From the NCBI GenBank assembly GCA_023266845.1, contig JAHFPH010000003.1, positions 1-59,617 of the forward strand: a DNA stretch of 59,617 bases, in the 5' to 3' direction. Both the position numbers and the translations under genes were made by a program. The notes beneath the pieces were generated by a model. The model worked only from the letters and a program-made list of their open reading frames with translations, made no database searches and was not told the DNA's origin. Position 1 is the first letter of the stretch, and each line of letters begins with the position of its first letter. This document shows positions 17,863-59,478 of the stretch, piece after piece. The DNA comes from Rhodospirillaceae bacterium (lineage in GTDB: Bacteria > Pseudomonadota > Alphaproteobacteria > JAEULC01).

Positions 17863-17872
17863 TCCCCGCCCC

Positions 17873-18676: not shown

Positions 18677-18695
18677 GCCCGGTTCCTTTGTTTCT

Positions 18696-19427: not shown

Positions 19428-19508
19428 GGCGAAGCGTCCTTGCGGGTTCGATAAAGGCGCGGCCCCGGGACGCGAACGCCCCAGGACAGCGCAACGAGAT
19501 AACGCGAC

Positions 19509-20528: not shown

Positions 20529-20552
20529 GTGTTTCCTCCTGTTGCGTATCGC

Positions 20553-45031: not shown

Positions 45032-45363
45032 GCTTTCGGGCGTTGCGCCGTCGCTGCGACGATGGGATGATCCTTGCCGGTGGCGTATTTCGGCCCCGCT
45101 CCTCCCGGCGCGCCCCAGCCCGTGACCTGGGGCCCGAAGAATTCGGCGTTGGCGGCGATGAACCGTTTCTGGTTTTCCGGCACGTCGATATCGCCGTAGA
45201 TCGCCTGCACCGGGCAGACCGACAGGCACAGCGCGCAGTTGATGCATTCGTCGGGCTGGATATAGAGCATCCGCCCGCCCTCGTAGATGCATTCCACCGG
45301 GCAGACCTTGACGCAGGTCCCGTCCTTCACGTCGATGCATGTCTCGGTGATGACATAGGCCAT
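45028..45363 (-). CDS. fdxA: 7Fe ferredoxin (FdxA type, [3Fe-4S][4Fe-4S])
   Basis: 111 aa. MAYVITETCIDVKDGTCVKVCPVECIY..PDECINCALCLSVCPVQAI matches the cysteine pattern of Azotobacter-type ferredoxin I. Confidence 0.9.
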   Translation of the reverse strand: MAYVITETCIDVKDGTCVKVCPVECIYEGGRMLYIQPDECINCALCLSVCPVQAIYGDIDVPENQKRFIAANAEFFGPQVTGWGAPGGAGPKYATGKDHPIVAATAQRPKA

Positions 45364-45370
45364 GGGCGGC

Positions 45371-46144: not shown

Positions 46145-47346
46145 GTCGACGTTCCCTGGGCCACCACGCCTTCCTTGACCAGTGCCTCGATCTTGGCGGG
46201 CGCGTAGCCCAATTCGCGCAGCACATCGCGCCCATGCTCGCCCAATCTGGGCGGGCGGGTCAGGCGGATCTCCGCACCGGACATGGAGATCGGCGAGGCT
46301 ACGAGCTTGATCGGGTCGTTGCCCGCGTTGGGCACCTCGACCACCATCTTGTTCACGGCGGTTTGCGGATCGTTGAGCGCCTCGGCCAGGGACTTGACCG
46401 GCGCGCAGAGCAGGTCCTGCGCCTCCAGGCGCTTCAGCCAATGGGCGGTGGTGTTCGCGACGAAACGATCGCGGAAGATTTTCTGCAAATCGGCGCGGTT
46501 CTTCACCTGGTCGGGGAAACTGTCGTAGCGCGGATCGGCCGACAGGTCGGCGATCTCGAGCGCCGCGCAAATGTCGCGCAAGGGGTGCTGCTTGAACGCG
46601 CCGACCAGCACCAACGCGCCGTCCTTGGTGGCGAACACGCCCGACAGCGGCATGGCGCCCCAGTTGAGGTCGCGCGAACGCATCAGCCACATCGCCGCTT
46701 CCTGCATCTGCATCGCCAGCATCGAGTTGTAGAGCGATACGTTGATCTCCTGCCCCTCGCCCGTGCGCTCGCGCTGGTAAAGGGCCAGCAGAATGCCCTG
46801 GACCAGGTGCATGCCCGCCGAATAATCGGCCAGCGCCGTGGCGTAGATCGACATCGGCTCCGCCATGTCCGAACGGCGGTGCATGACGCCCGTGAGCGCC
46901 TGGGCAAGCACGTCCTGCCCGCCCTTATGCGCATTGGGGCCCGCGGGACCGAAGCCCGAGCCCACGGCGTTGATGATGCGCGGGTTGATTTTTTTCAGCT
47001 CGGCATAGCCGAAGCCGAGCTTGTCGAGCACGCCGGGGCGAAAATTGTTGACCACCACATCGGCGGTCTTGACCAGGTCGCGCACCACCTGCTTGCCCTT
47101 TTCGCCGCGCAGGTCGAGCGCGATGCTGCGCTTGTTGCGGTTGAGGCTGTGGAACACCGGATTGTCCAGCCCGCCCGGATCGTCGGGGATCGAGCTGCGC
47201 GACAGGTCGCCGGCGCCCGGACGCTCGATCTTGATCACGTCCGCCCCGTAATCGCCCAGCATCTGCGTGGCGCAAGGGCCCATCATCACCTGCGTGAAGT
47301 CGATGACCCTGACGCCGTCGAGCGGCAGCCTGCCGTTCTTCGCCAT
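46141..47346 (-). CDS. family III CoA-transferase (CaiB/BaiF family)
   Basis: 401 aa. VRVIDFTQVMMGPCATQMLGDYGADVIKIERPGAGD.. and later family blocks. Could alternatively be an alpha-methylacyl-CoA racemase-type member. Confidence 0.9.
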   Translation of the reverse strand: MAKNGRLPLDGVRVIDFTQVMMGPCATQMLGDYGADVIKIERPGAGDLSRSSIPDDPGGLDNPVFHSLNRNKRSIALDLRGEKGKQVVRDLVKTADVVVNNFRPGVLDKLGFGYAELKKINPRIINAVGSGFGPAGPNAHKGGQDVLAQALTGVMHRRSDMAEPMSIYATALADYSAGMHLVQGILLALYQRERTGEGQEINVSLYNSMLAMQMQEAAMWLMRSRDLNWGAMPLSGVFATKDGALVLVGAFKQHPLRDICAALEIADLSADPRYDSFPDQVKNRADLQKIFRDRFVANTTAHWLKRLEAQDLLCAPVKSLAEALNDPQTAVNKMVVEVPNAGNDPIKLVASPISMSGAEIRLTRPPRLGEHGRDVLRELGYAPAKIEALVKEGVVAQGTST

Positions 47347-47350
47347 CGCC

Positions 47351-48709
47351 CTACTCCGCCGCTTGCAGGATTTTCGCGTTCGCCGCGGGTATGTCGCCCG
47401 GATCGCCGCCAGCCGCGCGGATTTTCTTTTGCAGCGCCGTCACGTCGATCTGGCGCACCGCGGTGTTGCCTTGAAGCGCCATCGAAGCGGCGATACCGCA
47501 AGCCTCGCCCATCGCCATGCAGGGCGGAATCTCGCGCGAGACTTTCTGCGCGGCGGGCGTGGCCGAATAATGCCGGCCGGCCACCAGCAACTGCTCGACT
47601 TTCTTGGGCAGAAGCGCGCGATAGGGCGTGTAGTAGTCGCGCCCGCGCGCCACGCTGTCGCGGAAATGCACGCGCTCGGTCACGTCCTCCTTGCTGACGA
47701 CGTAGTCGCCGTCGAGCAGGCGCGTTTGGCGCACGCCGGTCTGCGGCGCGACATCGACCACGAAGCATTTCTCGAAGCCGGGCAGCGGCGCCTTGCGCAA
47801 CCAATCGACCATCGCGTAGATGCGCGTGCGACCCTCGAACTCGGCCTTGGTCAAATCCTCGACCTTGACGCCGTCATAGCCCGTCATGTGCGGGCAGTTG
47901 CACCACACCACGCCGGGCAGCGGCGTCTTCAGCCACCACATCTCCCACGACCCGCCGATGACGCGCTTGACCTCGCGATCCAGGCGCAGGAATTTCTCCG
48001 GCTCCTCGAACTGGAATTTCTCGGCCGCGTCCGTATCCACGCCGCCTAGGCGGAACACGGTGGTCAGGATGTACGAGCCGTGCGTGAAGGCAGCACCCGC
48101 GCTGGCCGCCACGTCCAGGTCGCCGGTGGCGTCGATCACCACCTTGCCCATCAGCGCCTGGCGGCCGGCCTTGGTCTCGCACACCACGCCCGTGATGCGC
48201 CCGTCCGCGACGATCGCGCGCGAGAACCAGCTATGCAGACGCAGATCGATCTTGTTTTCGCGGATCATGTCGCAGGACACGCGCTTCCACCCGTCGGGAT
48301 CGAAGGCCGCGGCATAGGTGATGGGCTGCGGGCGGGTGTGGGAATGGAAATCGTGCACGCCCCAGCGCGACCATTTCTTCCACATCTCGATGTGCTGGCG
48401 GCGGTCTTCCGCGGGCGGATAGACGGCCATGCCGTGCGCGGCCATGCGGTCGATAAATTCCTGGCAAATGCCCTTGACCGTGATCTCAGGCCCGTTGGTC
48501 ATGTCGTCGAGCACCAGCACCATGCCGCCCGAGGCGAGCCCGCCGAGATAGGGGTAGCGTTCGACCAACGTCACCTTGGCGCCGTTGCGCGCGGCGGCGA
48601 TGGCGGCGGCCGTACCGGCAGGGCCGCCGCCCACCACCAGCACGTCGGCATCGGCCACGACCGGCGCGCGTCCGGCGGAATCGGCAATGAAGCTCTGGTC
48701 CATAGTCAT
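47351..48709 (-). CDS. FAD-dependent oxidoreductase (FAD_oxidored/GidA-like fold, unknown substrate)
   Basis: 452 aa. AGGAG RBS. DVLVVGGGPAGTAAAIAAARNGAKVTLVER dinucleotide fold followed by YLGGLASGG. Confidence 0.85.
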   Translation of the reverse strand: MTMDQSFIADSAGRAPVVADADVLVVGGGPAGTAAAIAAARNGAKVTLVERYPYLGGLASGGMVLVLDDMTNGPEITVKGICQEFIDRMAAHGMAVYPPAEDRRQHIEMWKKWSRWGVHDFHSHTRPQPITYAAAFDPDGWKRVSCDMIRENKIDLRLHSWFSRAIVADGRITGVVCETKAGRQALMGKVVIDATGDLDVAASAGAAFTHGSYILTTVFRLGGVDTDAAEKFQFEEPEKFLRLDREVKRVIGGSWEMWWLKTPLPGVVWCNCPHMTGYDGVKVEDLTKAEFEGRTRIYAMVDWLRKAPLPGFEKCFVVDVAPQTGVRQTRLLDGDYVVSKEDVTERVHFRDSVARGRDYYTPYRALLPKKVEQLLVAGRHYSATPAAQKVSREIPPCMAMGEACGIAASMALQGNTAVRQIDVTALQKKIRAAGGDPGDIPAANAKILQAAE

Positions 48710-48749
48710 AGCTAAACTCCTGGGCGTTCGACGGACTCCAGACTCAGGC

Positions 48750-49592
48750 TCAGCCCGCGCGGTCCGATTTCCATTTGACGACGTGGCGCTCGATCAGGCC
48801 GATGACGCCGAAAAAGCAGGCCGAGAAGGTGGAGCCGACGGCGATGGTCGCGTAGAGCAGCGGCGTGTCGAACGCGTAGGTCGCCTGGATGATCAGCGCG
48901 CCGATGCCTTTGACGCTGCCGATCCACTCGCCGACGATAGCGCCGATCACCGAGGTGCTGGCGGCGATCTTGAGCGCCGAGAACAGATAGGGTAGCGAGT
49001 TCTGCACGCGGATTTTCAGGAATATCTCGCGCGGACTGGCCGACAGCACGCGCATCAGCTCCAAGGCCTGCGGGTTCACGTCCTGGAGCCCGCGCACCAT
49101 GTTGACCAGCGTGGGAAAGAAGCAGATCAGCGCGGCGATGGCGATTTTCGGCTCCATGCCGTTGCCCAGTAGCAAGACGAGGATCGGCGCTTTCGCCACC
49201 ACCGGGATGGTGTTGACCATAACCGCGATCGGGAAGAATGCCTCTTCCGCCGCGCGGTTGTGCACGAACGCGGTGGCGAGCGCGATGGCGGCGAAATTGC
49301 CCAGCAGAAACCCGCACACCGCCTCGATCGCGGTCGGCATCAGGTTTGCCATCAATATGTCGAAGCGCTGGATCAGCACGCGAAATACGGCCGTGGGCGT
49401 GGGCGCGATGAACGGCTTGATGTCGAACGCCACAACGGCCCAATGCCACAGCACCAGCAGCAGGATCACCGCGCCCACGGGCAGCAGGCGCTTGCGCCAC
49501 AACAGGCGCCGCTTGGCGGCCATGAACCGCGCCTGCTCTGCTTGGTCGACGACGAAGCCGCCGCTTACGGTCGCGCTGGCGTCGCTGGCCAT
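48750..49592 (-). CDS. ABC transporter permease (NitT/TauT family)
   Basis: ATG 49592 (MASDASATV..) overlaps the ATPase stop by 1 nt; the upstream part of the track ORF is shadow sequence. It has 6 TM segments and an EAA-like loop. Confidence 0.88.
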   Translation of the reverse strand: MASDASATVSGGFVVDQAEQARFMAAKRRLLWRKRLLPVGAVILLLVLWHWAVVAFDIKPFIAPTPTAVFRVLIQRFDILMANLMPTAIEAVCGFLLGNFAAIALATAFVHNRAAEEAFFPIAVMVNTIPVVAKAPILVLLLGNGMEPKIAIAALICFFPTLVNMVRGLQDVNPQALELMRVLSASPREIFLKIRVQNSLPYLFSALKIAASTSVIGAIVGEWIGSVKGIGALIIQATYAFDTPLLYATIAVGSTFSACFFGVIGLIERHVVKWKSDRAG

Positions 49593-50422
49593 CAGCAATT
49601 CTCCAGTTCGCGGCGCAGCAGGCCCGCGAGCGCCACGAACTCGGCCGTCTCGCGCACCGGCAGACGGCGCGGCGAGGGCAGCGTGATCGGCACCAGCGCG
49701 CGCACGCGGCCCGGGCGCGCCGCCAGCATCAGCACCTGTTGGCTCAGGAACACGGCCTCGTAGATGCTGTGCGTGACGAACACGATGGTGGTGCCGGTCG
49801 ATTCCCACACGTCAAGCAGCTCTTCGTTGAGGCGGTCGCGCGTGATCTCGTCGAGCGCCCCGAACGGCTCGTCCATCAAAAGCAGCTTGGGCCCGCTGAC
49901 CAAGGCGCGGGCGATCGACACGCGCTGGCGCATGCCGCCCGAAAGCTCGTGCGGATAGGCGTTCTCCCAGCCCGCCAGTCCGACCAGCTTCAGCAATTCC
50001 TCGGGCGGGCGCGTGCCGGGCCGCTGCTGCGCGCCGCCCACTTCGAACGGCAGTTGGACATTCTGCAACGCGGTGCGCCAGGGCAAAAGCGCCGCATCCT
50101 GGAACACGAAGCCGATATCGCGGTTGCGCCGCGCCACCTCGGGCTTGGCGCCCAAAACCGCGACCTTACCCGCGCTCGGCGGCACCAGATCGGCGATCAC
50201 GCGCAGCAGCGTGGACTTGCCGCAGCCCGACGGTCCCAGCAAAGTCAGGAAGCTGCCGGCGTGAATTGCCAGCGAGACGCCGTCGAGCGCCGTGACCGTG
50301 CCGCGCTCGGTCGTGAAGCGAACGGTCACGCCCTCGCAGCGCACGGCCTCGGCGGCGCCGGATTTCGCCGGCGCCGCCGTTCCCGCTGGGATCGCTCCCG
50401 AAACCGCTACTGCCGCGGTCAT
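49592..50422 (-). CDS. ABC transporter ATP-binding protein (NitT/TauT family)
   Basis: 276 aa. Walker A GPSGCGKST, signature LSGGMRQRVSIARAL, Walker B LLLMDEPF. Confidence 0.9.
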   Translation of the reverse strand: MTAAVAVSGAIPAGTAAPAKSGAAEAVRCEGVTVRFTTERGTVTALDGVSLAIHAGSFLTLLGPSGCGKSTLLRVIADLVPPSAGKVAVLGAKPEVARRNRDIGFVFQDAALLPWRTALQNVQLPFEVGGAQQRPGTRPPEELLKLVGLAGWENAYPHELSGGMRQRVSIARALVSGPKLLLMDEPFGALDEITRDRLNEELLDVWESTGTTIVFVTHSIYEAVFLSQQVLMLAARPGRVRALVPITLPSPRRLPVRETAEFVALAGLLRRELENC

Positions 50423-50425
50423 GCG

Positions 50426-51469
50426 TCAGCCGATCTTCGGCCGCTTGTCCTTGGTGGCGTCGAGGATCGCCGTGGTGGCGACGGCCTCGACCTTGGGTGC
50501 GCCGGCCGAGAACTGCTTCAACTCGTCGTAAACCTTGATCTGCTCGGCCCAGTTCGCCATTTCCATCTGGCCCCAGCCATTGGCCTTGGTCGCGGCCGTG
50601 AACTCGAATTTCAGCATCACGTCGGCGGCCTCGACCTCGTCGGCCTTCACCAGGTTGGGGTACTCCTTGACCAGCAGGTCCACCGCTTTTTCGCGGTTGG
50701 AATTGGCCCATTCCCAGCCCTTGGCGGTGGCGCGGGTGAACGCGGCCACCATCTCGGCCTTCTTGGTCAGCGTGTCGTTGGTGGCGTAGTACGGCAGCGC
50801 GTAGAGCTTGATGCCCGAATCCCACAGCCGCAGATCGACGCGATCCTTGCCCAGCGGCTTGATTGCCGTGGTGTTGGTGAGCCACCCGGTGAACACATCC
50901 ACCTGGCCGGTCAGCAGCGGCGTCATGTCGGCGCCGGCAACCACCACCTCGACCTTGTCTTCGGGGATGTTGTTCTTCTTCAAAAGCGCGGTCAGCAGAA
51001 TCTTGCCCGTCGCCTGGATGCCGACCTTTTTGCCCACCAAGTCCTGCGGCGTCTTCACCGGCTTCTTGCCCAGCGAGAAGAAGGTGTAGGGATGCTCCTG
51101 CGCGCCGACCGCGAAACACTTGATCGGTAGGCTTTGCGAAGCTGCGAGCATCAGCGAGGGGCTGGACGAGACCTGGCCGATCTCGAACTTGCCCGAGGCG
51201 ACGATCGCCACGCCGTCGATCGACGGGCCGCCCGGCTGGATGGCGATGTTCAGCTTTTCCTGCTCGTAGAAACCCATCGCCTTGGCGACGACCTCGCCCA
51301 GCTGGTTGCCGCCGGTGATCCAGCCGAGCTGGAAATTGACGGTTTGCGTGGCGGCCTGCTGTGCATAGCCGCGGCCTGGCACCAGCCCGGTCGCCAGAAG
51401 CCCCACGGTGCCGGCGCCGTAGCCCAGCACTTTGCGGCGTGTAATCAAGGATTTGCGCGATTTCGCCAT
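50426..51469 (-). CDS. ABC transporter substrate-binding protein (NMT1/THI5-like, NitT/TauT family)
   Basis: ATG 51469 (MAKSRKSLITRRKVLGYGAGTVGLLATG.., Tat-like leader). The mature part is NMT1/SsuA-like (NFQLGWI, GKKVGIQ). Confidence 0.85.
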   Translation of the reverse strand: MAKSRKSLITRRKVLGYGAGTVGLLATGLVPGRGYAQQAATQTVNFQLGWITGGNQLGEVVAKAMGFYEQEKLNIAIQPGGPSIDGVAIVASGKFEIGQVSSSPSLMLAASQSLPIKCFAVGAQEHPYTFFSLGKKPVKTPQDLVGKKVGIQATGKILLTALLKKNNIPEDKVEVVVAGADMTPLLTGQVDVFTGWLTNTTAIKPLGKDRVDLRLWDSGIKLYALPYYATNDTLTKKAEMVAAFTRATAKGWEWANSNREKAVDLLVKEYPNLVKADEVEAADVMLKFEFTAATKANGWGQMEMANWAEQIKVYDELKQFSAGAPKVEAVATTAILDATKDKRPKIG

Positions 51470-51578
51470 GGTTTGACCCCTTTTCCCCAGGCGTTCATGG
51501 GACGCCCTTGCCCAATAACCCACGCAAACTCTATGCCCCTTTCGGTGCGCTAGAAAAGAACAGTTTTTCGCCCAAGGA

Positions 51579-51595
51579 GATGCCAAAATGGCATC
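51579..51595. promoter_or_regulatory. LysR-type T-N11-A dyad (GATGCCA-AAA-TGGCATC)
   Basis: Perfect 7-3-7 inverted repeat containing T-N11-A. It sits in the divergent intergenic region between the NitT/TauT operon (start 51469) and the LysR gene (likely start 51621). Confidence 0.4.
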
Positions 51596-51620
51596 GCCGA
51601 TTCTTCCATTGGGGGAACCA

Positions 51621-52535
51621 ATGCACGCCGCCGTTCTGCGCTATCTGGACCAGGTTGCGCGCCACGGGTCGATCCGCCGCGCGGCCGCGGCCACGAACGT
51701 GGCGTCCTCGGCCATCAACCGGCAGATTCTGCGCCTGGAGCGCGATCTGGGCGCGGCGCTATTCGTGCGCCGGCGCGACGGCGTGGTGCTGACGCCCGTG
51801 GGCGAGGCGATGCTGCGCCATGTGCGCGATACGCTGGCGGATTTCAAACGCGCCAAGGGCGAGATCGAGGGCTTGCGCGGCATCGTCAGCGGCGAGGTGC
51901 GCATCGCCGCGCTCGATTCGCTGCTGGTGCAGTTCGTGCCCGACACGCTTTCCGATCTGGCGCGGCGCTATCCACACCTCACCTTCTCGGTGACGGCGCA
52001 GGGTCCGGCCGATCTGGCCGAGGAGCTGCGCAGCGGCCGTGCCGACATCGCCCTCTCTTTCGTCGACCAGCGCTATCGCGACGTCGAGGTGGTCGCCGCG
52101 CAGAAGACGCCGCTGGGCGCGGTGGTGGCGCCGTCGCATCCCCTCGCCGGACGCAAGCGCGTGCCGGTGGGGGAGTGCGCCGACTATCCCGCGATCCTGG
52201 TGCATGACCGCATGCCGCTGACACCGACGCTCGAGGCCGAGTTCGCGCGGCACCGTACCGTGTTCCGCGCGCGCTTCACCTCGAACTCGCTGGAATTCAT
52301 GCGCGCGATGCTGCTGGCGGGCCTGGGCGTCGGATTCTTCACGCGCCTGGGCTTCATGCGCGAGATCGCGCAAGGCCGGCTGGTGCATGTGCCGCTGGCT
52401 GAGCCGGGCCTGCGCAACGTCGCCCTGGGCGTGCTGGTGATGCGCCGCCGGCCGATGTCGCCCGCCGTGGAGCTGACGCTCGAGGCGATCCGCCGCAACC
52501 TCGCCGCGCTGGGGCGAGGCGCGAAAGCAGCTTAG
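51621..52535 (+). CDS. LysR-family transcriptional regulator
   Basis: The track start at 51588 lies inside the dyad. ATG 51621 gives MHAAVLRYLDQVARHGSIRRAAAATNVASSAINRQILRLERDLG, a typical LysR wHTH, followed by an effector domain. Confidence 0.88.
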   Translation: MHAAVLRYLDQVARHGSIRRAAAATNVASSAINRQILRLERDLGAALFVRRRDGVVLTPVGEAMLRHVRDTLADFKRAKGEIEGLRGIVSGEVRIAALDSLLVQFVPDTLSDLARRYPHLTFSVTAQGPADLAEELRSGRADIALSFVDQRYRDVEVVAAQKTPLGAVVAPSHPLAGRKRVPVGECADYPAILVHDRMPLTPTLEAEFARHRTVFRARFTSNSLEFMRAMLLAGLGVGFFTRLGFMREIAQGRLVHVPLAEPGLRNVALGVLVMRRRPMSPAVELTLEAIRRNLAALGRGAKAA

Positions 52536-52556: not shown

Positions 52557-53168
52557 CTATTTCTTGACGCCTAGACCGCGCATGAAACGGTCGCGGATCT
52601 GCGCCGGATCGCGCTCGGTCTGCTCCACCGCCGGCTCGCCGTCGATGCGCGCAGCCACGAGCCATGGGCCCTCGCCCGCGAGTGCGCGGTCCATCAGCTT
52701 CTCGAACGCGGCTTCGTCGTCGGCCCAGGCGCTTTGGTCGATGCCGGCGCCGCGCGCCATCGCCACGATGTCCGCGCCCGCCGCCGTCGAGGTGGGCTGC
52801 GAGCCGGTGATCTGGTAGCTGCCGTTGTCCATCACCACGATCGCCAGGTTCCTGGGCCTGAGCATGGCGATGGTGGTAAGCGCACCCAGCTGCATTAGGA
52901 TCGATCCGTCGCCTTCCAGCGCGAACACCCGGCGCTTGGGCTGAGCCAGCGCCACCCCCAACGCGATGGGCACGGCCAGGCCCATCGACCCCAGCATGTA
53001 GAAATTCTGCGGCCGGCGGCCGGCGGCCCATAAATCGAAATTGGTGTTGCCGATGCCGCCGACCACCGCCTCTTCGTGCTTCAGCTTCGCCACTAGGCGT
53101 TTGGTGATGTCGAAGCGGTTCAGCACCTTGGCGTTGCCGCGGCCGCGCGATTCTAATTCTTGCGACAT
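52557..53168 (-). CDS. ThDP-dependent decarboxylase, beta (diphosphate-binding) subunit, sulfopyruvate/phosphonopyruvate decarboxylase-like (ComE-like)
   Basis: ATG 53168 (MSQELESRG..), 203 aa. ThDP motif GDGSILMQLGALTTIAMLRPRNLAIVVMDNGSY (GDG-X26-N). The upstream part of the 375-aa track ORF is out-of-frame shadow over the alpha subunit. Confidence 0.85.
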   Translation of the reverse strand: MSQELESRGRGNAKVLNRFDITKRLVAKLKHEEAVVGGIGNTNFDLWAAGRRPQNFYMLGSMGLAVPIALGVALAQPKRRVFALEGDGSILMQLGALTTIAMLRPRNLAIVVMDNGSYQITGSQPTSTAAGADIVAMARGAGIDQSAWADDEAAFEKLMDRALAGEGPWLVAARIDGEPAVEQTERDPAQIRDRFMRGLGVKK

Positions 53169-53176
53169 TTTGGGGC

Positions 53177-53698
53177 TCACTTCTTCAGCACTTTGCCGCC
53201 GGTCAAAAGCGGCGACAGGATCAGCGCGGCCGGGGCCTGGGTCTGCACGGCCTGCTTGATGGTTCGGTCGGCGATGAATTCGACCTGGTCCAAACGCTCG
53301 ATCGTGTGGTGCTCCATGGCCAGCGCATCCAGCACCGGGCGCATGGTGCGGCAAGTCATGGCCTGGCCGAGGTTGAATTCGCCCAACGTGCCGCGCTCGG
53401 AAATCATCATGACAACGGGGATCTGGAACGGCACGGCCAGCGAGGCGAGCGCGTTGGCGAGCGTGGCGAAGCCGCTGGTCTGCATCAGCACCACCCCGCG
53501 CATCCCCGCCATCCACGCGCCCGAGACCACGCCCACCGCCTCTTCCTCGCGCGCGCAGGCGAATGAGGTGAAGTCCTTGTCGGCGCGCACCGCGTCGATC
53601 AACGGCCGCAGCACGTTGTCCGGCACATAGGTGACCAGCTTCACCTGGTTCGCCTTGAAGACGTCGCGCACGATCTCGTGCCACGCGCGTTCGGCCAT
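53177..53698 (-). CDS. ThDP-dependent decarboxylase, alpha (pyrimidine-binding) subunit (ComD-like)
   Basis: 173 aa. TPP_enzyme_N-like (VTYVPDNVLRPL.., REEEAVGVVSGAWMAG.., LMQTSG). Ends 8 nt before the beta-subunit start. Confidence 0.85.
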   Translation of the reverse strand: MAERAWHEIVRDVFKANQVKLVTYVPDNVLRPLIDAVRADKDFTSFACAREEEAVGVVSGAWMAGMRGVVLMQTSGFATLANALASLAVPFQIPVVMMISERGTLGEFNLGQAMTCRTMRPVLDALAMEHHTIERLDQVEFIADRTIKQAVQTQAPAALILSPLLTGGKVLKK

Positions 53699-53727
53699 TG
53701 CCTAACCCCCGGTTTCCCTTCCCGTTC

Positions 53728-55383
53728 CTATAATAGCGCGACTTCGTGGCGCTTGAGCACGCGATAGATCAGCGCCAACGGCAGGATGGTCGCCAGGATC
53801 AGCACGGTCGCGGTCGCGGCCGCCGTGCCCGCGCCCGTGCCCTCGAGCGCGCGGAACATCTCGACCGTCATGGTGGACCACTGGCCGCTGTAGAGTACGA
53901 CAGTGGCGCTAAGCTCCGACGTGATGGTAACCCAGGTCAAGATCGTACCGCCGATCACGCCGCCCGCCATCAGCGGCACGGTGAGCTGGAAAAAGGTGCG
54001 CGCGGGCGAAACGCCGAGGTTGATCGACGCTTCTTCCAGGCTCGGATCGATCTGATGCAGGATCGCCGCGCTGGCGCGCACGTTGAACGGCAGCTTGCGG
54101 ATCATGTAGGCCAGCACCAGGATCAGCCAGCCGCCCGTGAGGATCAGAAAACCGCTGTTGAACGAGATCACCAAGCCGATGCCCAGAACCGTGCCGGCGA
54201 CGGCGAACGGCGCCATCGCCACCACGTCCAAGAGATCGGCCAGGCGCGAGCGATAACGCGTCAGCACATAGCCGATCGGCACGCCCAGCAGCGTCGCGCC
54301 GGCCGCCGCCCCGGTCGCCAGCATGAGGGTGTTGACCAGCGGCCGCTCGCCGCGCTGCCACAGCAGAACGAAGTTGCCGATGCTGGGCTCCAGATGCATC
54401 ACCGGCCCGCGGAATTTCAGGAACGAGATCGCGACGACCGCCGCGAACGGCACCAGGGCCAGCAGCACCACGCCCCAGGCGAAGCACGCGCCGAGGCGCC
54501 GGAGCCATGGCGCCACGACAAGCTCGGGCGGGACTGAGCGTGCACCGGTGGCGAAACGCCGCTTGGACAAATAGTACCGCTGCAGCAGCAGCGCCGCCGT
54601 GGTGCAGCAGATCAGGAGCACGCCCAGCACCCCGGCCGAGGCCGGATTGGCGCCCATCTCGCCGACGAACAGCTTATAGGCCTGGATCGACAGGATCGGC
54701 ATGTCCTCGGCCAGCACGAAGGGTACGCCGAAATTCTCCAGCGTCTCCATGAACACCAAAAGCCCGCCCGACAGCACCGAGGGCAGCACGACAGGCAGGA
54801 TCACCGTGCGGAACACGCGCCAGCGCGTCGCGCCCAGGTTCTGCCCCGCCTCCTCGATCGACACGTCCACCGCCTTGAACGCGGCCAGCGTGGGCAGCAG
54901 CACGTACGGGAAAGTCTGCAGCGTATAGACCAGCACCAGCCCCTGCTTGCCGTAGATCGAGATGCCATCGAGGCCGATCTCGCGCAAGCCCTGGGTGACG
55001 AGGCCTGCGCGGCCCAGCAATAGCACCCAAGCATAGGCCCCGACGAAGGACGGCAGCACCAGCGGCAAGGCGGCGAGCGCCAGCAGCGCGGGCTTCGCCG
55101 GTACCGGCAGGCGCGCGACGCAAAACGCCATCGGCACGCCAATCGCGATCGTCATGAGGGTGGCCAGCGAGCCGACGGTCAGGCTGTTGATCAGGCCCGC
55201 GCGATAGAACGGCGTACCGAGAATCTTGACGTAGTTGGCGAGGGTAAGGGCCTTGCCGCTCGGATCGAAGAAGCTGGCCTGGAATACGTTGTAGAGCGGA
55301 TAGACCAGGAATAGGCCGAGGAACGCCAGGGCCACCGCCGCCACGGCCAGCGGAAAACCGGAGCGCGCGGGGATCAGTCGCAT
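53728..55383 (-). CDS. ABC transporter permease, duplicated two-domain type (FbpB/AfuB/ThiP-like)
   Basis: 551 aa with about 12 TM segments in two homologous halves. Confidence 0.9.
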   Translation of the reverse strand: MRLIPARSGFPLAVAAVALAFLGLFLVYPLYNVFQASFFDPSGKALTLANYVKILGTPFYRAGLINSLTVGSLATLMTIAIGVPMAFCVARLPVPAKPALLALAALPLVLPSFVGAYAWVLLLGRAGLVTQGLREIGLDGISIYGKQGLVLVYTLQTFPYVLLPTLAAFKAVDVSIEEAGQNLGATRWRVFRTVILPVVLPSVLSGGLLVFMETLENFGVPFVLAEDMPILSIQAYKLFVGEMGANPASAGVLGVLLICCTTAALLLQRYYLSKRRFATGARSVPPELVVAPWLRRLGACFAWGVVLLALVPFAAVVAISFLKFRGPVMHLEPSIGNFVLLWQRGERPLVNTLMLATGAAAGATLLGVPIGYVLTRYRSRLADLLDVVAMAPFAVAGTVLGIGLVISFNSGFLILTGGWLILVLAYMIRKLPFNVRASAAILHQIDPSLEEASINLGVSPARTFFQLTVPLMAGGVIGGTILTWVTITSELSATVVLYSGQWSTMTVEMFRALEGTGAGTAAATATVLILATILPLALIYRVLKRHEVALL

Positions 55384-56459
55384 GGGCCGGGAAACGCGGT
55401 GACGCGCGCCGGATCGTAGGAAAGCGCAACCGGACCTTCGGCCAGCGCGCGCGGCATATCAACCGCCGCGGCGTGCAGCACCAGCCCGCTGTCGAGCGCA
55501 AGCTCGATGCGCGTCAACGCGCCAAGGAACTCGATGCGGACGACGCGCGCCTCGAGGCTGGCCCAGCCCGGCGGCGGCTTGGCGCCGGGTGCTGTGATCG
55601 TCAGCGCCTCGGGCCTGAGCGAGAAACCGATCGCCTTGCCCGGCTCCGCCTCTGCGATTCCCGGGGCGCCGACCAGGAAGTCGTGGCCGCCCGCGCGCAC
55701 CACGGCGCGATCACCCTCATGCCTTATCACGCTGCCGCTGAGCAAATTGGTCGTTCCCATGAACCGCGCAACGAACGGCGTGGCGGGGCGCTGGTAGATG
55801 TCCACGGGCTGGCCGATTTGCTCCACGGACCCTGCGTTCATCACGGCGATGCGGTCGGAGATCGCCATCGCCTCTTCCTGGTCGTGCGTGACGTAGAGCG
55901 CGGTGATGCCAAGGCGTTTCTGCAGCTGGCGGATCTCGCCGCGCATCTCGACGCGCAGCTTGGCGTCGAGATTCGACAGCGGCTCGTCCAGCAGGATGAC
56001 CTCGGGCTCGATCACCAGGCAGCGCGCGAGCGCCACGCGCTGCAACTGCCCGCCCGAGAGCTGATGCGGCCAGCGCGCGCCGTAGCCATCGAGATGCACG
56101 AGCTTCAGCGCCTTCGCTGCGCGATCGTCGATTTGATCCGGGACGATGCCGCGCGCCTTCAGGCCATACGCAACGTTCCCGTTCACGGTCAGGTTGGGAA
56201 AGATCGCGTAGTTCTGGAACACCATGCCGGCGTTGCGCTTATGCGGCGGCACGGTGTCGATGCGTCGCTCGCCGAAATGGATCGTGCCCGAATCCAGGTC
56301 GCAGAATCCCGCCACCATGCGCAACAGCGTGGTCTTGCCGCAACCCGAGGGGCCGAGCAGGGTGAAAAACTCGCCGTCGCGGATGTCGAGCGTGACGCCG
56401 CGCACCGCGGCGACCGCGCCGAACGCGCGCGCGACGCCGTCGATCCGGATCGCGGTCAA
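55374..56459 (-). CDS. ABC transporter ATP-binding protein with C-terminal TOBE-like domain (FbpC/PotA/AfuC-like)
   Basis: 361 aa. Walker A GPSGCGKTT, signature LSGGQLQRVALARCL, Walker B ILLDEPLS. The only in-frame start before the conserved N-terminus is TTG 56459 (GAGGG upstream). 10-nt overlap with the permease gene. Confidence 0.9.
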   Translation of the reverse strand: MTAIRIDGVARAFGAVAAVRGVTLDIRDGEFFTLLGPSGCGKTTLLRMVAGFCDLDSGTIHFGERRIDTVPPHKRNAGMVFQNYAIFPNLTVNGNVAYGLKARGIVPDQIDDRAAKALKLVHLDGYGARWPHQLSGGQLQRVALARCLVIEPEVILLDEPLSNLDAKLRVEMRGEIRQLQKRLGITALYVTHDQEEAMAISDRIAVMNAGSVEQIGQPVDIYQRPATPFVARFMGTTNLLSGSVIRHEGDRAVVRAGGHDFLVGAPGIAEAEPGKAIGFSLRPEALTITAPGAKPPPGWASLEARVVRIEFLGALTRIELALDSGLVLHAAAVDMPRALAEGPVALSYDPARVTAFPGPCD

Positions 56460-56487
56460 CGATTCCGGCCCTCGGCGGCGGCGCGGA

Positions 56488-57486
56488 TCAGCGCGTCTTG
56501 GCGATGATGTCCTGCAGCTTCTGCATGGTCTCGGGCCGCGCCTTGGTCCAGGCCGCTTCGTCGTACGGCGCGATCTTGATCGCCGCGAGGGCCGGCATGT
56601 TGCCCGGCAGCTTGGACAGATCGAGGTCCTGGCGCGTGGGCCGGCGGAAGGTCTTCGACAGGATCAGCTCGCGCGTATCCTTCTGGTTGATGAAATCGAC
56701 GAACGCCTTGGCGGATTCGGTGTTCGGCCCGCCCTTGATGATGGCGCAGCCCTCCATCTGGGCGGCAGTGCCATCGCTGGGGTAGATCACCTTCACCGGC
56801 GCTCCGTTGCTGGCCCACAGATACCCGGCATATTCCAGCGACACGCCGAGGGGGTATTCGCCGTTGCCCACGCCCTGGAACACCAGGGACGAGCGGTTCA
56901 GCACTTTCGTGTTGGCGAAGAACTGCTCGACCTTCTTCCAGGCCGCGTCGTTGTTGCCCCACATCTGCGCGAGGAGCGTGGCGTTGGTATAGGCCGATCC
57001 CGAATTGGCCGGGTCGGTGAAGGCGATCTTGCCCTTCCATTTCGGGTCGAGCAGGTCGTTCCAGCTCTTCGGGCCTTGACCTTCCGGCAGCGCCTTGGTG
57101 TTCTGCAGGATCACCAGCATGTGCAGGTTGTTGCCGATCCACAGATCGTTCGGGTCGCGGAATTCGGCCGGTATCGCGCCCACGTTCTTCGATTTATAGG
57201 GCGTGAAGAATTCCTTGTTGGATTCCAACAGCGACCGGCTGACGCCCCAGATGATGTCGCCGCCCGGGCGGTCCTTTTCGGTCTGAATGCGCTTGACCAA
57301 CACGCCCGAGCCGCCCGACACGCCGTTGACCTTGATCGAGGTCGCCTTCTCGAACGCCTCGTACACCAGCGAATCCAGCGTATTCTCGTTGGCGGAATAG
57401 ACCACGACCTGCTTTTGCGCCAGCGCCGGCGAGACGGCGAACAGCGCCGCTATCACGGTCGCGCAGCGGAATCCCATGAATTTCAT
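56488..57486 (-). CDS. ABC transporter periplasmic substrate-binding protein (Fe3+/AfuA/PhnS-type class)
   Basis: ATG 57486 (MKFMGFRCATVIAALFAVSPALAQ Sec leader). Mature part VVVYSANENTLDS.., GGDIIWG, typical of this SBP class. The upstream 70 codons of the track ORF are not protein-like. Confidence 0.88.
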   Translation of the reverse strand: MKFMGFRCATVIAALFAVSPALAQKQVVVYSANENTLDSLVYEAFEKATSIKVNGVSGGSGVLVKRIQTEKDRPGGDIIWGVSRSLLESNKEFFTPYKSKNVGAIPAEFRDPNDLWIGNNLHMLVILQNTKALPEGQGPKSWNDLLDPKWKGKIAFTDPANSGSAYTNATLLAQMWGNNDAAWKKVEQFFANTKVLNRSSLVFQGVGNGEYPLGVSLEYAGYLWASNGAPVKVIYPSDGTAAQMEGCAIIKGGPNTESAKAFVDFINQKDTRELILSKTFRRPTRQDLDLSKLPGNMPALAAIKIAPYDEAAWTKARPETMQKLQDIIAKTR

Positions 57487-57616
57487 GGCTGGATGCTCCC
57501 CTACCCCGGATCGTTGATTGTTCAACATTACAGCGCCACCCCGAAGGGTCAAGGCGAGGCGGTTTAGCCGTAATGCCTCGGTCAAAATCGCTGCAATGGG
57601 TGGAAAAGGGGACATT

Positions 57617-57648
57617 GTCATTTCCATTAGCCGCCTTCCGGAAATGAC
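57617..57648. promoter_or_regulatory. 9-bp perfect inverted repeat (GTCATTTCC-N14-GGAAATGAC)
   Basis: Read directly from the sequence. Located in the 249-bp divergent intergenic region between the SBP gene (start 57486, minus) and the cyclase gene (start 57736, plus). Confidence 0.3.
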
Positions 57649-57735
57649 CCGGCTCGGACATCGTTGCCTCGATAGACATACCCCGCCCCCAATCATAAAC
57701 TCAGTTCGAAATCACACCCGGGCGGGGCGACTTTA

Positions 57736-59478
57736 ATGGCAGAAGCGCGTGTCGAACGGCGGCTAGCAGCCATCCTCGCAATCGACGTTGCCGGATATAG
57801 CCGCCTGATGGGCATCGATGAAGAAGGTACTCTTGCGGCGCTCAAGGTGCATCGAAGCGAACTTATCGACCCTAAGATTGCCGAGCATCACGGCCGAATC
57901 GTCAAGACCACGGGTGACGGCGCCTTGGTCGAATTTTCGAGCGCGGTCGATGGAGTGCGCTGCGCCATGGAAATCCAGCGCGTTATGGCTGAACGCAACG
58001 CGGCCATCTCCGAAGATCACCGGATCGAATTCCGCATCGGCATCAACGTGGGCGATATCATTATCGACGAGGGCGATCTCTACGGCGACGGGGTAAATAT
58101 CGCGGCTCGGGTCGAGACATTTGCCGACCCAGGTGGGATTTGTATCGCGGAGAACGCTTACCGACAGGTCGATGGCAAGTTGACACTTAATGTTAGCAAT
58201 ATGGGAGAACAGCAGCTCAAAAATATCGCGCGGCCCGTGCGGATCTATCAAGTGCAGTTGGACGGAACAGCACGCCCGGCACTCGCCTTGCCAGACAAGC
58301 CCTCGATTGCTGTGTTGCCGTTCACCAATATGAGCGGCGATGCGGATCAGGACTATTTCGCAGACGGCATCTCGGAAGATATCATCACTACGCTGTCCCG
58401 TTTTCGACATCTATTCGTGATCGCACGCAATTCAACTTTCACCTACAAGGGCCGGGCAGTGGACATGAAGCAGGTCGGACGAGAGCTCGGCGTGCGCTAC
58501 GTGCTCGAAGGCAGCGTGCGGAAGGTGGGCAACCGCGTTCGCATTACGGCGCAGCTAATTGACGCAATTTCCAGCCACCACGTATGGGCCGAACGTTACG
58601 ACCGGGATTTAGTCGACATTTTTTCTCTACAAGACGAGATAACAGACCGCGTTGCCGGGGCAATCGAACCCGAACTGCTCAAAATTGAAAGCGGGCGCGC
58701 GGCGACGCGTAGCACCTCAAGTCTGAATGCCTGGGATTTGGTTCGTCAGGGTACGTGGCATTTCCATCAAATAACACCCGCAGGCCACGCAAGGGCGCGG
58801 GAGTTGTTCCGAGAAGCAATCAAACTCGATGCCAAGCTTCCCGATTCGCACATTTGGCTTGCTCGAGTCAGCGCGGGCATTGTCGCGTTCGGTTGGAGCG
58901 GCAATCCGCAGCGCGATCTTTGCGAGGGATTGCACGCAGCTCACGTCGCTCTTCAGCTTGATGAAAAAGACCCTTATTCTCACTACGCACTGGCGATCAT
59001 TAGCGTGTTTTCCGACGCGCTGGAACAGGCTATCCGGGCTGGTGAAGAGGCGGTTGAGATCAGTCCAAGCTTTGCCCTCGGTTATTTCGTGCTGGGCTTG
59101 GGCCGTTTATTTTCCGGAAATGCGGCCGATGCAATCGGCTCCATTGAACGCGGGATTCGACTTAATCCCTACGATCCCCAAAACTTTGTCTGGCTTCAGA
59201 TGTTGGCGCTCGCCTTTTATTTCGTGGACCAGAAAGACAAGGCGCTGCAGATCGCCATTCGGGCATTAAAAATCCGGCCGGATTGGTTGCCCACGCTCGA
59301 AACGCTGGCGCTTTGCTACGCAACGCTCGACCGCGTAGAAGACGCTCGCGAATGCATCAAAAAAATGAGTGCATTGGAGCAGCCAAAGGGCGATCTTCTC
59401 GCGCTACTGAAAACCCACAATCCTCAATGGACCGATCTTATGGCGACGATGTTGCGCAAGGCTGGGGGGCAAGGGTGA
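57736..59478 (+). CDS. class III adenylate/guanylate cyclase with TolB-N-like and TPR domains
   Basis: 580 aa. Cyclase homology domain (LAILAIDVAGYSRLM, KTTGDGALVEF, YGDGVNIAARVE), then PSIAVLPFTNMSGDADQDYFADGISEDIIT, then C-terminal TPR-like helices. Confidence 0.88.
   Translation: MAEARVERRLAAILAIDVAGYSRLMGIDEEGTLAALKVHRSELIDPKIAEHHGRIVKTTGDGALVEFSSAVDGVRCAMEIQRVMAERNAAISEDHRIEFRIGINVGDIIIDEGDLYGDGVNIAARVETFADPGGICIAENAYRQVDGKLTLNVSNMGEQQLKNIARPVRIYQVQLDGTARPALALPDKPSIAVLPFTNMSGDADQDYFADGISEDIITTLSRFRHLFVIARNSTFTYKGRAVDMKQVGRELGVRYVLEGSVRKVGNRVRITAQLIDAISSHHVWAERYDRDLVDIFSLQDEITDRVAGAIEPELLKIESGRAATRSTSSLNAWDLVRQGTWHFHQITPAGHARARELFREAIKLDAKLPDSHIWLARVSAGIVAFGWSGNPQRDLCEGLHAAHVALQLDEKDPYSHYALAIISVFSDALEQAIRAGEEAVEISPSFALGYFVLGLGRLFSGNAADAIGSIERGIRLNPYDPQNFVWLQMLALAFYFVDQKDKALQIAIRALKIRPDWLPTLETLALCYATLDRVEDARECIKKMSALEQPKGDLLALLKTHNPQWTDLMATMLRKAGGQG

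Follow-up and report, generated by a model that had tools for sequence, protein, structure and literature searches.

An operon joining an ABC importer to a split thiamine diphosphate enzyme of the unnamed family NF004813 suggests an undescribed pathway for degrading small organophosphorus or organosulfur acids

INTRODUCTION

The phosphonoalanine (Pal) cluster palR-palCDE-palB-palA of Variovorax sp. Pal2 combines an ATP-binding cassette (ABC) importer, built from a substrate-binding protein (SBP), a TOBE-type ATPase and a fused permease of about 550 residues, with the aspartate-type aminotransferase PalB and the C–P hydrolase PalA, a member of the phosphoenolpyruvate (PEP) mutase superfamily. 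In a separate lineage of thiamine diphosphate (ThDP)-dependent enzymes, two activities have been characterised, namely those of sulfopyruvate decarboxylase (ComDE) and of phosphonopyruvate decarboxylase (Ppd, AepY), the latter including RhiE/RhiF, a split enzyme of rhizocticin synthesis. ComDE is encoded by adjacent genes for a pyrimidine-binding (PYR) subunit of about 170 residues and a diphosphate-binding (PP) subunit of about 185–200 residues, with no middle domain; bacterial ComDE is also catabolic and stands next to 2-hydroxyacid dehydrogenases. Here we describe an operon in a 59,617-nucleotide stretch of DNA from a Rhodospirillaceae bacterium (contig JAHFPH010000003.1; hereafter the window) that joins an importer related to that of the Pal cluster to two small genes, alpha and beta, encoding the halves of a split ThDP enzyme, and we compare it with these systems.

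RESULTS

Placement of the ThDP pair in an unnamed sister family

Alpha (positions 53177–53698, 173 amino acids) and beta (52557–53168, 203 amino acids) both lie on the minus strand and match the Pfam domains TPP_enzyme_N (PYR domain; 29.4 bits, cut-off 26.8) and TPP_enzyme_C (PP domain; 82.3 bits), respectively. The cofactor motif GDG-X26-N begins at residue 86 of beta (GDGSILMQLGALTTIAMLRPRNLAIVVMDNG), and residues E51/E53 of alpha, in the segment REEEAVG, were invariant in an alignment of the NF004813 family, ComD and a split pair from Methylobacterium. The PP domain thus has the GDG-X24–27-N motif of the ThDP superfamily and the PYR domain its conserved Glu, in agreement with the first-pass annotation of this DNA, which had recognised the two small open reading frames (ORFs) as the PYR and PP halves of a split enzyme.

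We scored both subunits against NCBIfam models with their curated cut-offs (NF004813, 240 bits; ComD, TIGR03845, 147.95 bits; ComE, TIGR03846, 221.5 bits; Ppd, TIGR03297, 312.5 bits). Beta reached 346.8 bits on NF004813/PRK06163, an equivalog model with the product name "hypothetical protein" and the sole NCBIfam model passed. In contrast, beta scored 155.7 bits on the ComE model and alpha 108.9 bits on the ComD model, and the scores on the Ppd model (alpha 74.7, beta 128.9 bits) remained below its cut-off even when summed (203.6 bits). Relatives of the pair (loci L091 and L019 and Bradyrhizobium) scored 350–376 bits on NF004813. As a control, ComD and ComE of a Leisingera plasmid passed their own models (149.5 and 242 bits); on NF004813 the Leisingera protein reached only 144.8 bits and the Methylobacterium split pair 129.7 bits, so that Leisingera ComE and the Methylobacterium pair fall outside this family. 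The Leisingera genes belong to a dihydroxypropanesulfonate/sulfolactate cluster, which consists of a tripartite ATP-independent periplasmic (TRAP) transporter, an HpsN-like hisD, a short-chain dehydrogenase, an alcohol dehydrogenase, comD, comE and an alpha-hydroxyacid oxidase. Since members of ComE, Ppd and NF004813 scored about 130–165 bits on one another's models, the three behave as roughly equidistant sister families. By these model scores, the alpha/beta pair is placed as a ComDE/Ppd-like enzyme in the third, unnamed sister family, NF004813/PRK06163.

The identity to ComDE was 29% for alpha and 42% for beta, and the best annotated BLAST matches of beta were roseobacter ComE proteins (42–43% identity) encoded in an hps-comDE-alpha-hydroxyacid oxidase cluster. 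Among solved structures, alpha best matched RhiE (9iz3_A, E = 3e-10) and beta RhiF (9iz3_B, E = 3.8e-21), the two subunits of the split phosphonopyruvate decarboxylase; the entries 9u8q-s, a split ThDP pair of unnamed function, were weak matches to both. The first-pass annotation had called the pair ComDE- or Ppd-like. Its nearest named relatives, split layout and subunit sizes bear this out, and the HMM and BLAST comparison that the annotation had proposed does return ComDE as the best named family; however, the pair scores below every equivalog cut-off of ComD, ComE and Ppd and belongs to a family of its own.

This family comprises at least 7997 proteins at E ≤ 1e-10 (8000 candidates scored), and species-representative genomes contain at least 574 of its loci. 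The family is tight, with few representatives left after clustering at 50% identity, and it is common in soil Alphaproteobacteria, including most of the Bradyrhizobium examined. Its members carry the database names "decarboxylase", "sulfopyruvate decarboxylase alpha subunit" (IMG), "thiamine pyrophosphate-dependent enzyme" and "hypothetical protein". A full-text search of the literature on the NF004813 family, on ComDE/Ppd with ABC transporters and on Bradyrhizobium returned no characterised member, and no family member was found among PLSDB plasmids, where every match was below 60% identity. In alignments, the active-site regions of the window pair were nearly identical to those of Bradyrhizobium- and Acetobacteraceae-type members. 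The invariant arginines (R67 and R102 of alpha, R18 and R194 of beta) are candidates for binding the C3 anion.

More distant split ThDP pairs, with beta about 40% identical, were observed in Variovorax paradoxus (CP063167.1, L111:5933–9303) and Sphingobium (AP027325.1, L112:6471–9126), in operons of the forms ALDH-alpha-beta-carbonic anhydrase and alpha-beta-ALDH (ALDH, aldehyde dehydrogenase); their beta subunits of about 200 amino acids are mis-annotated as "aldehyde dehydrogenase". The distant Variovorax and Sphingobium pairs accompany aldehyde dehydrogenases and 2-hydroxyacid oxidases, and this setting suggests that an ancestral split ThDP lineage may be used in catabolism far beyond the two characterised activities.

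Organization of the operon

Three importer genes precede alpha and beta on the minus strand. The SBP gene (56488–57486) encodes 332 amino acids from an ATG start, with a signal-peptide-like N-terminus ending in ALAQK and Pfam matches to SBP_bac_6/8/11/1. The ATPase gene (55374–56459) encodes 361 amino acids, the same length as in relatives, from a TTG start; the product contains ABC_tran and C-terminal TOBE_2 domains, with Walker A (GPSGCGKT), LSGGQ and Walker B (VILLDE) motifs. The fused permease gene (53728–55383) encodes 551 amino acids with two BPD_transp_1 domains and two EAA-like loops, at residues 177 and 450. All five ORFs are intact, with no internal stops, and are spaced by 28, −10, 29 and 8 nt along the operon, the permease start overlapping the ATPase stop by 10 nt. 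Independent gene callers gave identical gene lengths on other contigs and assemblies of the same organism from groundwater metagenomes. The coordinates, the spacings and the TTG start given in the first-pass annotation were all recovered, and its view of the five packed minus-strand genes as a single operon is borne out both by their packing and by their recurrence in relatives.

Judged from this arrangement, the five genes form one operon. Their juxtaposition is evidently not due to chance, because the identical five-gene order recurs in relatives (beta 81–92% identical) with different flanks. Matches to the operon in sequencing runs came from DNA runs only (groundwater, cave and air metagenomes), with no transcript evidence among them.

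Conservation of the importer–decarboxylase link

We examined the neighborhoods of the best 80 of the at least 574 species-representative loci (beta 67–83% identical), which were drawn from Bradyrhizobium, Pseudolabrys and metagenome-assembled genomes (MAGs) of Acetobacteraceae, Stellaceae and Micropepsaceae. Alpha lay directly upstream of beta in 79 of these 80 loci; the remaining one starts inside beta, so that alpha lies beyond its end. None of the 80 contained the SBP or permease of the window. In closer relatives, however, the link is kept in several gene orders. A relative with 92% beta identity has the same five genes, with a 2-Hacid_dh and Aminotran_1_2 pair four genes upstream (and, upstream of its SBP gene, a different PAS-GAF-cyclase gene at L095:4886–6646). 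At 88% identity the five genes recur with the dehydrogenase–aminotransferase pair closer and a flavin mononucleotide (FMN)-dependent 2-hydroxyacid dehydrogenase gene convergent on beta. The order is FMN_dh-SBP-ATPase-permease-alpha-beta at 81% and alpha-beta-Aminotran_5-SBP-ATPase-permease at 84%, and relatives at 71–73% have a divergent ATPase-permease-ALDH-GntR set beside alpha-beta. The window's clade thus holds about five importer–decarboxylase arrangements.

A neighbor-joining tree of beta resolved three clades: a Bradyrhizobium-type clade, with D-2-hydroxyacid dehydrogenase with or without a Bug SBP; an Acetobacteraceae-type clade, with TcuA/TcuB and D-2-hydroxyacid dehydrogenase; and the window's clade, which contains every ABC-linked form. 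On these gene neighborhoods, the importer–decarboxylase link is real but lineage-restricted, because the ABC-linked forms are confined to one beta clade and orthologues of the SBP often stand without alpha/beta. The first-pass annotation would have given up the module had the linkage not been conserved in related genomes; the outcome is divided, since the link is absent from the 80 loci but kept within one clade.

Partner enzymes in relatives

The commonest neighbor across the family was a D-isomer 2-hydroxyacid dehydrogenase, found within six genes in 41 of the 77 loci in which beta was called. These dehydrogenases fall into at least two subfamilies, which are 42% identical over the C-terminal part only; a single orthologous partner was rejected on this ground, and the association is therefore with an enzyme class rather than with one orthologue. 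The partner dehydrogenase resembles phosphoglycerate dehydrogenase (PGDH), is named "phosphoglycerate dehydrogenase / 2-oxoglutarate reductase" in IMG and keeps the Arg-[Ser/Thr] anion motif (PMC6303947). The (S)-sulfolactate dehydrogenase SlcC is also a 2-hydroxyacid dehydrogenase of the PGDH clade (PMC6303947), and three enzyme families have phosphonopyruvate as a known or predicted substrate, namely Aminotran_1_2 (PalB), 2-Hacid_dh (VlpB) and Ppd (PMC8942020).

Additional partners in the window's clade are FMN-dependent L-2-hydroxyacid dehydrogenases, aminotransferases of two classes and aldehyde dehydrogenases. Orthology of the flanking FMN dehydrogenases with the comDE-adjacent enzyme of Leisingera was not supported (34–37% identity). 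The aminotransferase of the relatives with 88–92% beta identity is 49–53% identical to the PalBs of two Pal clusters, which are 60% identical to each other; on the aspartate transaminase model NF004769 (cut-off 617 bits), it scored 569–582 bits and the PalBs 524 bits, both just below the threshold. The other partner aminotransferases are of the BhcA-like aspartate–glyoxylate type. The aldehyde dehydrogenases of some relatives reached 262 bits on the PhnY model (cut-off 635 bits) and are not PhnY orthologues.

Enzymes that are not orthologous to one another, but that all produce or use up a 2-oxo acid or an aldehyde, have been recruited repeatedly, which is strong evidence, at the level of gene content, for a predicted route from a hydroxy or amino acid to a 2-oxo acid, through alpha/beta to an aldehyde, and on to an acid. 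The first-pass annotation had noted the absence of partner enzymes near the operon. This holds within the window, but relatives with 81–92% beta identity carry an aminotransferase, 2-hydroxyacid dehydrogenases or both beside the operon; the lack of partners is an accident of this genome's arrangement. The PalB-type aminotransferase, which lies beside the operon in the 88–92% relatives, is absent from the window and from the 2.3 kb beyond its end, and no PalA was found in or near the operon.

In Acetobacteraceae-type MAGs (L003, L006, L007, L010, L014, L020, L022, L028, L042 and L054), genes passing the tricarballylate dehydrogenase models TcuA (584 bits, cut-off 369) and TcuB (424 bits, cut-off 247) lie immediately upstream of alpha/beta in divergent orientation. 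This adjacency, which extends through a whole clade, is accounted for by none of the explanations offered below.

Relatives and binding pocket of the importer

The best NCBIfam matches of the importer were to the PhnS2, PhnT2 and PhnU2 models (TIGR03261, TIGR03265 and TIGR03262; cut-offs 392.75, 457.7 and 593.25 bits), all sub-threshold: 160 bits for the SBP, 374 bits for the ATPase and 225.3 bits for the permease. The nearest annotated transporters include those of two Pal clusters, one from V. paradoxus (CP063167.1) and one from Pseudosulfitobacter (CP069020.1), and these show the same sub-threshold pattern. The V. paradoxus cluster has the order LysR | SBP-ATPase-fused permease-aminotransferase-PalA, its PalA scoring 644.7 bits on TIGR02321 (cut-off 374.4), and the Pseudosulfitobacter cluster has the same content. 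Identities between the window and these importers were 36% for the SBP, 46–54% for the ATPase and 36–38% for the permease. The SBP motifs W-x-G-[NT]-N-x-H, [LM]-E-Y-A and RRPxRxD are common to the Pal SBPs and the window SBP and absent from AfuA.

The best PDB matches of the SBP were AfuA (4r72, E = 1.4e-32) and the pyridoxal phosphate (PLP)-binding P5PA (E = 1e-25), both ahead of ferric-binding proteins; the closest solved relatives thus bind sugar phosphates (hexose, heptose) or PLP, not iron. In AfuA, the phosphate site is formed by Ser37/Gly38, Thr60, Ser148-Gly149-Thr150 and Gly185 (PMC4546632, PMC8427247). The window SBP has S60/G61, S83, S162-G163-S164 and S197 at these positions, all identical or conservative, and the alignment with AfuA and P5PA shows G59-S60-G61, S83 and S162-G163-S164 as the anion-site residues kept. 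In contrast, the ring-binding residues Y103, H205, D206 and E229 of AfuA are replaced by N120, Y219, A220 and Q243, so that the ligand is probably neither a hexose phosphate nor PLP. An AfuA-like sugar-phosphate importer was rejected, every sugar-contact residue being replaced.

The iron ligands of FbpA are His9, Glu57, Tyr195 and Tyr196 (Neisseria/Haemophilus numbering). Compared with an FbpA reference sequence identical to PDB 1d9y/1o7t/1r1n, the SBP keeps one of the four (H9 to E, E57 to V, Y195 kept, Y196 to A), and a ferric-iron importer was rejected on these residues and on the nearest solved homologues, AfuA and P5PA. This agrees with the earlier assignment of the SBP to the Fe3+/AfuA/PhnS structural class; it is not a classical iron binder. 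Homologues are nonetheless named "iron(III) transport system substrate-binding protein" and "iron ABC transporter permease" by IMG/PGAP.

Orthologues of the SBP with 66–70% identity often stand in bare SBP-ATPase-permease operons, and others are accompanied by a BhcA-like aminotransferase. In metagenome contig Ga0310810_10002845 (L107:5854–12890), a 67%-identical orthologue without alpha/beta lies in an operon of a BhcA-like aminotransferase, SBP, ATPase, permease, a PLP-dependent aldolase of the GntG family (397.7 bits, cut-off 230) and an enzyme of the isocitrate lyase (ICL)/PEP-mutase superfamily, so that the importer is joined there to another undescribed enzyme set. The best plasmid match of the SBP (36% identical; Paracoccus pantotrophus plasmid NZ_CP058691.1, L108:4336–11104) belongs to a cluster of GntR, an inositol-monophosphatase-family protein, ATPase, permease, SBP, a proline-racemase-family protein and an Ldh_2-family oxidoreductase, a third undescribed enzyme set on this importer type.

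Flanks and other genes of the window

The 249-nt region between the SBP gene and the divergent gene upstream (57487–57735) is, from its position alone, the presumed promoter/operator region. Promoter and terminator scans gave nothing above shuffled expectation; on the minus strand of this region no sigma-70 consensus was found, and one weak match lies on the plus strand (57673–57701). The upstream flank consists of two paralogous adenylate-cyclase/TPR genes: the divergent gene (57736–59478) encodes an adenylate/guanylate cyclase fused to a TPR-rich region, and its 48%-identical paralogue lies just past the window end.

On the downstream side, a LysR gene (51588–52535, plus strand) is convergent with the operon and heads a separate minus-strand operon, from which it diverges (45028–52535 including LysR). 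This operon encodes an NMT1/SsuA-like SBP, an ABC ATPase, a permease, a FAD_oxidored-family protein of 452 amino acids with no NCBIfam match, a family III CoA-transferase, an enoyl-CoA hydratase and a small ferredoxin. It represents an uncharacterised module of NitT/TauT-type uptake and CoA-dependent catabolism that is not conserved beside the importer–decarboxylase operon in relatives.

Profile searches of the window found no xsc, pta, suyAB, slcD, phnW/X or true PEP mutase gene; the absence near the operon of the established partner genes of such decarboxylases, pointed out in the first-pass annotation, thus extends over the whole 59.6 kb. Sulfonate genes (comABC, hps/slc, xsc-pta, suyAB) were likewise found neither in the window nor among the neighbors in about 100 related loci. 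A PEP_mutase Pfam match at 15942–16931 was rejected as a partner: it scored 80.1 bits on the PEP mutase model TIGR02320 (cut-off 319.55) and 89.3 bits on the PalA model TIGR02321, is nearest to methylisocitrate lyase without reaching any cut-off, and lies 35 kb away in a separate TRAP operon. That region (14763–22445) contains a LysR gene followed by a minus-strand operon for a fused DctQ-DctM TRAP permease (630 amino acids), a DctP SBP, this ICL/PEP-mutase-superfamily protein, a D-2-hydroxyacid dehydrogenase, an HpcH/HpaI aldolase and a dienelactone hydrolase. At 10059–11798, a 579-amino-acid fusion of a BPD_transp_2 permease domain with an ABC ATPase domain is encoded in a Peripla_BP_6 ABC operon that ends with Meth_synt_2-like and NHL-repeat genes. 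The remaining content of the window is of TRAP, branched-chain ABC and beta-oxidation-type genes.

DISCUSSION

A proposed route and its alternatives

We propose that a Pal-type (PhnS2T2U2-like) ABC importer would take up a small C3 acid with a tetrahedral oxy-anion group at C3 and an amino group or hydroxyl at C2. Enzymes encoded elsewhere in this genome would convert the imported acid to the 2-oxo acid; in relatives, the candidates for this step (PalB-like aminotransferase, PGDH-like D-2-hydroxyacid dehydrogenase and FMN-dependent L-2-hydroxyacid dehydrogenase) lie beside the operon. The heteromeric alpha/beta enzyme would then remove C1 as CO2 to yield an aldehyde. This general scheme of precursor import, 2-oxo acid formation and ThDP-dependent decarboxylation seems likely to us. 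It modifies the earlier idea of import coupled directly to decarboxylation of a 2-oxo acid: the coupling of import to decarboxylation is retained, but since the closest relatives encode an aminotransferase and 2-hydroxyacid dehydrogenases next to the same operon, what is imported is more likely to be the amino or hydroxy precursor of the 2-oxo acid. In the preferred series, phosphonoalanine or phosphonolactate would be converted to 3-phosphonopyruvate and this to phosphonoacetaldehyde, in a Pal-like pathway where the decarboxylase replaces the C–P hydrolase PalA and would feed the PhnX or PhnY/PhnA routes. What the sequence data establish are gene content, operon structure, family placement, neighborhood statistics and the pattern of pocket residues, whereas the way in which flux runs, the substrate and what becomes of the aldehyde are inferred.

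Phosphonopyruvate is ranked first because of the Pal-like importer, the PalB-like aminotransferase and the PGDH-like dehydrogenase with its anion-binding Arg; as the putative substrate of the decarboxylase it is slightly favored over 3-sulfopyruvate, with a probability of roughly 0.38. Several observations weigh against it. Neither the window nor about 100 related loci showed a gene for PhnX, PhnY, PhnA or PhnW or a Pho-type signal, and aldehyde enzymes (PhnX, PhnY and PhnA, or Xsc and SafD for the sulfonate series) were not seen near any member, which tells against both series. The pair scores slightly higher on ComD/ComE than on Ppd, and its best annotated BLAST match is a genuine ComE (43%). 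Most members (Bradyrhizobium and Acetobacteraceae MAGs) stand without the importer in contexts unrelated to phosphonates, namely gcl-hyi-glxR, oxc-frc, TcuAB and Bug SBPs; as the active-site regions are near-identical across clades, one substrate must fit all of these contexts. Moreover, the SBP shares only 36% identity with the Pal SBPs, its own orthologues at 66–70% often occur alone, without any enzyme, and an aminotransferase that shares 50% identity with PalB might just as well act on cysteate or aspartate.

If alpha/beta were instead a divergent bacterial ComDE, imported sulfolactate or cysteate would be oxidised or transaminated (by an SlcC-like D-2-hydroxyacid dehydrogenase, an FMN-dependent L-2-hydroxyacid dehydrogenase or an aspartate-type aminotransferase) to 3-sulfopyruvate and decarboxylated to sulfoacetaldehyde, with Xsc or SafD encoded elsewhere in the genome. 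The best named models of both subunits in the window and relatives (ComD, 108.9–120 bits; ComE, 154–165 bits) and the roseobacter ComE matches of beta fit this series, as do the FMN alpha-hydroxyacid dehydrogenases that flank the operon in relatives, as in Leisingera. Bug/TctC SBPs, the class of the sulfolactate SBP SlcH, flank alpha/beta in 17–22 loci; sulfolactate is also far more abundant in the environment than phosphonolactate. SlcC and the partner dehydrogenase share the PGDH clade (PMC6303947). However, a true ComDE passes the equivalog cut-offs that both subunits miss, xsc, pta, suyAB, tauE and sulfite dehydrogenase were not seen in the window or the related loci examined, and the FMN dehydrogenases are too far from the Leisingera enzyme to be its orthologues. 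The nearest described importer relatives sit in phosphonoalanine clusters, and we know of no sulfonate transporter in the importer family; on balance we rank the sulfonate series second and regard it as doubtful. A 2-oxo acid drawn from central metabolism, either a carboxylate or a phosphate ester (oxaloacetate, 2-oxoglutarate, hydroxypyruvate or 3-phosphohydroxypyruvate), with the importer feeding an amino or hydroxy acid into this hub, would explain why alpha/beta is conserved (67–83% identity) over neighborhoods as different as TcuAB, Bug SBPs, hydantoinase/oxoprolinase-type genes, aldehyde dehydrogenases, gcl-hyi-glxR and oxc-frc. In this case NF004813 might represent a new specificity within the ancestral split lineage, with 2-oxoglutarate as the top candidate, and the Bradyrhizobium orthologues, which adjoin a D-2-hydroxyacid/2-oxoglutarate reductase-like gene, would encode the 2-oxoglutarate decarboxylase of the alternative tricarboxylic acid cycle, a version that we rate as a long shot. 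A sucA mutant of B. japonicum reportedly (in 2000) showed ThDP-dependent 2-oxoglutarate decarboxylase activity, and to our knowledge no gene has been assigned to it. The aspartate-type (NF004769-like) or BhcA-like aminotransferases and the PGDH-like dehydrogenase with its IMG name suit such a hub, and the ICL/PEP-mutase-superfamily and threonine-aldolase-like enzymes of L107 also fit (hydroxy)aspartate/oxaloacetate chemistry. KGD activity of B. japonicum is mentioned in PMC10418658. Nevertheless, the substrate of every characterised relative in the split lineage (ComDE, Ppd and RhiEF) is a three-carbon 2-oxo acid bearing a sulfonate or phosphonate group, the SBP keeps the Ser/Gly/Thr helix-dipole site typical of tetrahedral oxy-anions, and the Bradyrhizobium synteny with glyoxylate/oxalate genes is perhaps mere lineage inertia. 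Dicarboxylate amino acids, too, are normally imported via other SBP families, and a central 2-oxo acid is accordingly judged unlikely.

Other ThDP chemistry, such as carboligation or decarboxylation of a heterocyclic carboxylic acid, would have a precedent in LumK/LumL of riboflavin catabolism, a split ThDP pair with a non-classical substrate (PMC12746152); the weakly matching pair 9u8q-s and the luciferase-like monooxygenase and VOC dioxygenase genes adjoining L002, L008 and L009 can be read in the same direction. Yet the recurrence of 2-hydroxyacid dehydrogenases of three non-orthologous kinds, aminotransferases and aldehyde dehydrogenases is the signature of a hydroxy or amino acid to aldehyde route, and makes such chemistry improbable. 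An ordinary ferric-iron importer whose adjacency to the ThDP genes has no functional meaning would match the names given to its homologues by IMG/PGAP; with a single FbpA ligand kept, closest solved relatives that bind sugar phosphates or PLP, tight packing (gaps of 8–29 nt and one overlap) and linkage maintained through rearrangements between differing flanks, we give it very little credence. The same holds for a biosynthetic pair serving coenzyme M or phosphonate natural-product or lipid synthesis, the settings in which ComDE and Ppd/RhiEF were first found: no PEP mutase or comABC is present, the sole PEP_mutase-superfamily gene being the methylisocitrate-lyase-like one 35 kb away, the pair shares its operon with an importer, and dehydrogenases and aminotransferases typical of catabolism flank its relatives.

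Significance

The alpha/beta pair belongs to a large family for which the literature found describes no characterised member. If the phosphonate series is correct, phosphonoalanine-type compounds would be degraded without PalA by Alphaproteobacteria of soil and groundwater, these bacteria running the "biosynthetic" Ppd reaction catabolically and merging into the phosphonoacetaldehyde pathways, and metagenome counts of phosphonate-degradation potential, in which palA looks rare, would change. If the sulfonate series is correct, plant-associated bacteria would have in this family an unrecognised route for sulfolactate/cysteate. Under either series, importers auto-annotated as iron(III) transporters would be mis-named. 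The operon supplies a matched SBP–enzyme pair, which makes the question of the substrate directly testable.

Comparison with known systems

The closest described system, which the first-pass annotation had not considered, is the Pal cluster. Both have the same importer architecture and a nearby LysR gene, and a PalB-like aspartate-type aminotransferase (49–53% identical) lies beside the operon in close relatives of the window. In contrast to the Pal cluster, the enzyme position is occupied here by a putative split ThDP decarboxylase instead of PalA, and the aminotransferase lies outside this window. The LysR gene converges on the operon and diverges from another one, and the relatives have additional D- and L-2-hydroxyacid dehydrogenases that are missing from the Pal cluster. 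The likeness to ComDE lies in the adjacent split PYR and PP genes, in the best named scores of both subunits and in the catabolic setting of bacterial ComDE; the differences lie in the sub-threshold scores and the modest identities, in the use of an ABC importer where known sulfonate clusters use TRAP or tripartite tricarboxylate transporters, and in the absence of xsc, pta and hps near the operon.

Ppd/AepY and RhiEF share the ThDP lineage with the window pair, RhiEF being likewise split and the best solved-structure match, and would share its product if the phosphonate series is right; however, the scores on the Ppd model are below its cut-off (74.7 and 128.9 against 312.5 bits), and Ppd is biosynthetic and stands beside PEP mutase, whereas the window has an importer, a catabolic context in relatives and no PEP mutase. 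AfuABC and P5PA offer the closest solved SBP fold, with conserved Ser/Gly/Thr phosphate-binding residues and, unlike the window SBP, their ring-binding residues in place. PhnS2T2U2, a putative 2-aminoethylphosphonate ABC transporter, is the best NCBIfam family for all three importer components, but the scores are far below its equivalog cut-offs, and phnW, phnX and phnA are not adjacent. LumK/LumL is also a catabolic two-subunit ThDP decarboxylase, for which co-expression of both halves is required (PMC12746152); it is likened here by description, not by sequence, and its substrate class and gene context are unrelated.

The operon thus falls outside ComDE, Ppd, the PalA-containing Pal cluster, FbpA, AfuA and PhnS2T2U2 by their defining tests and passes that of NF004813 alone. 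In its workings it most resembles a Pal cluster in which a decarboxylase has taken the place of PalA, as well as the sulfolactate catabolism of bacteria that use ComDE, and this combination suggests an undescribed pathway by which small organophosphorus or organosulfur acids would be broken down.

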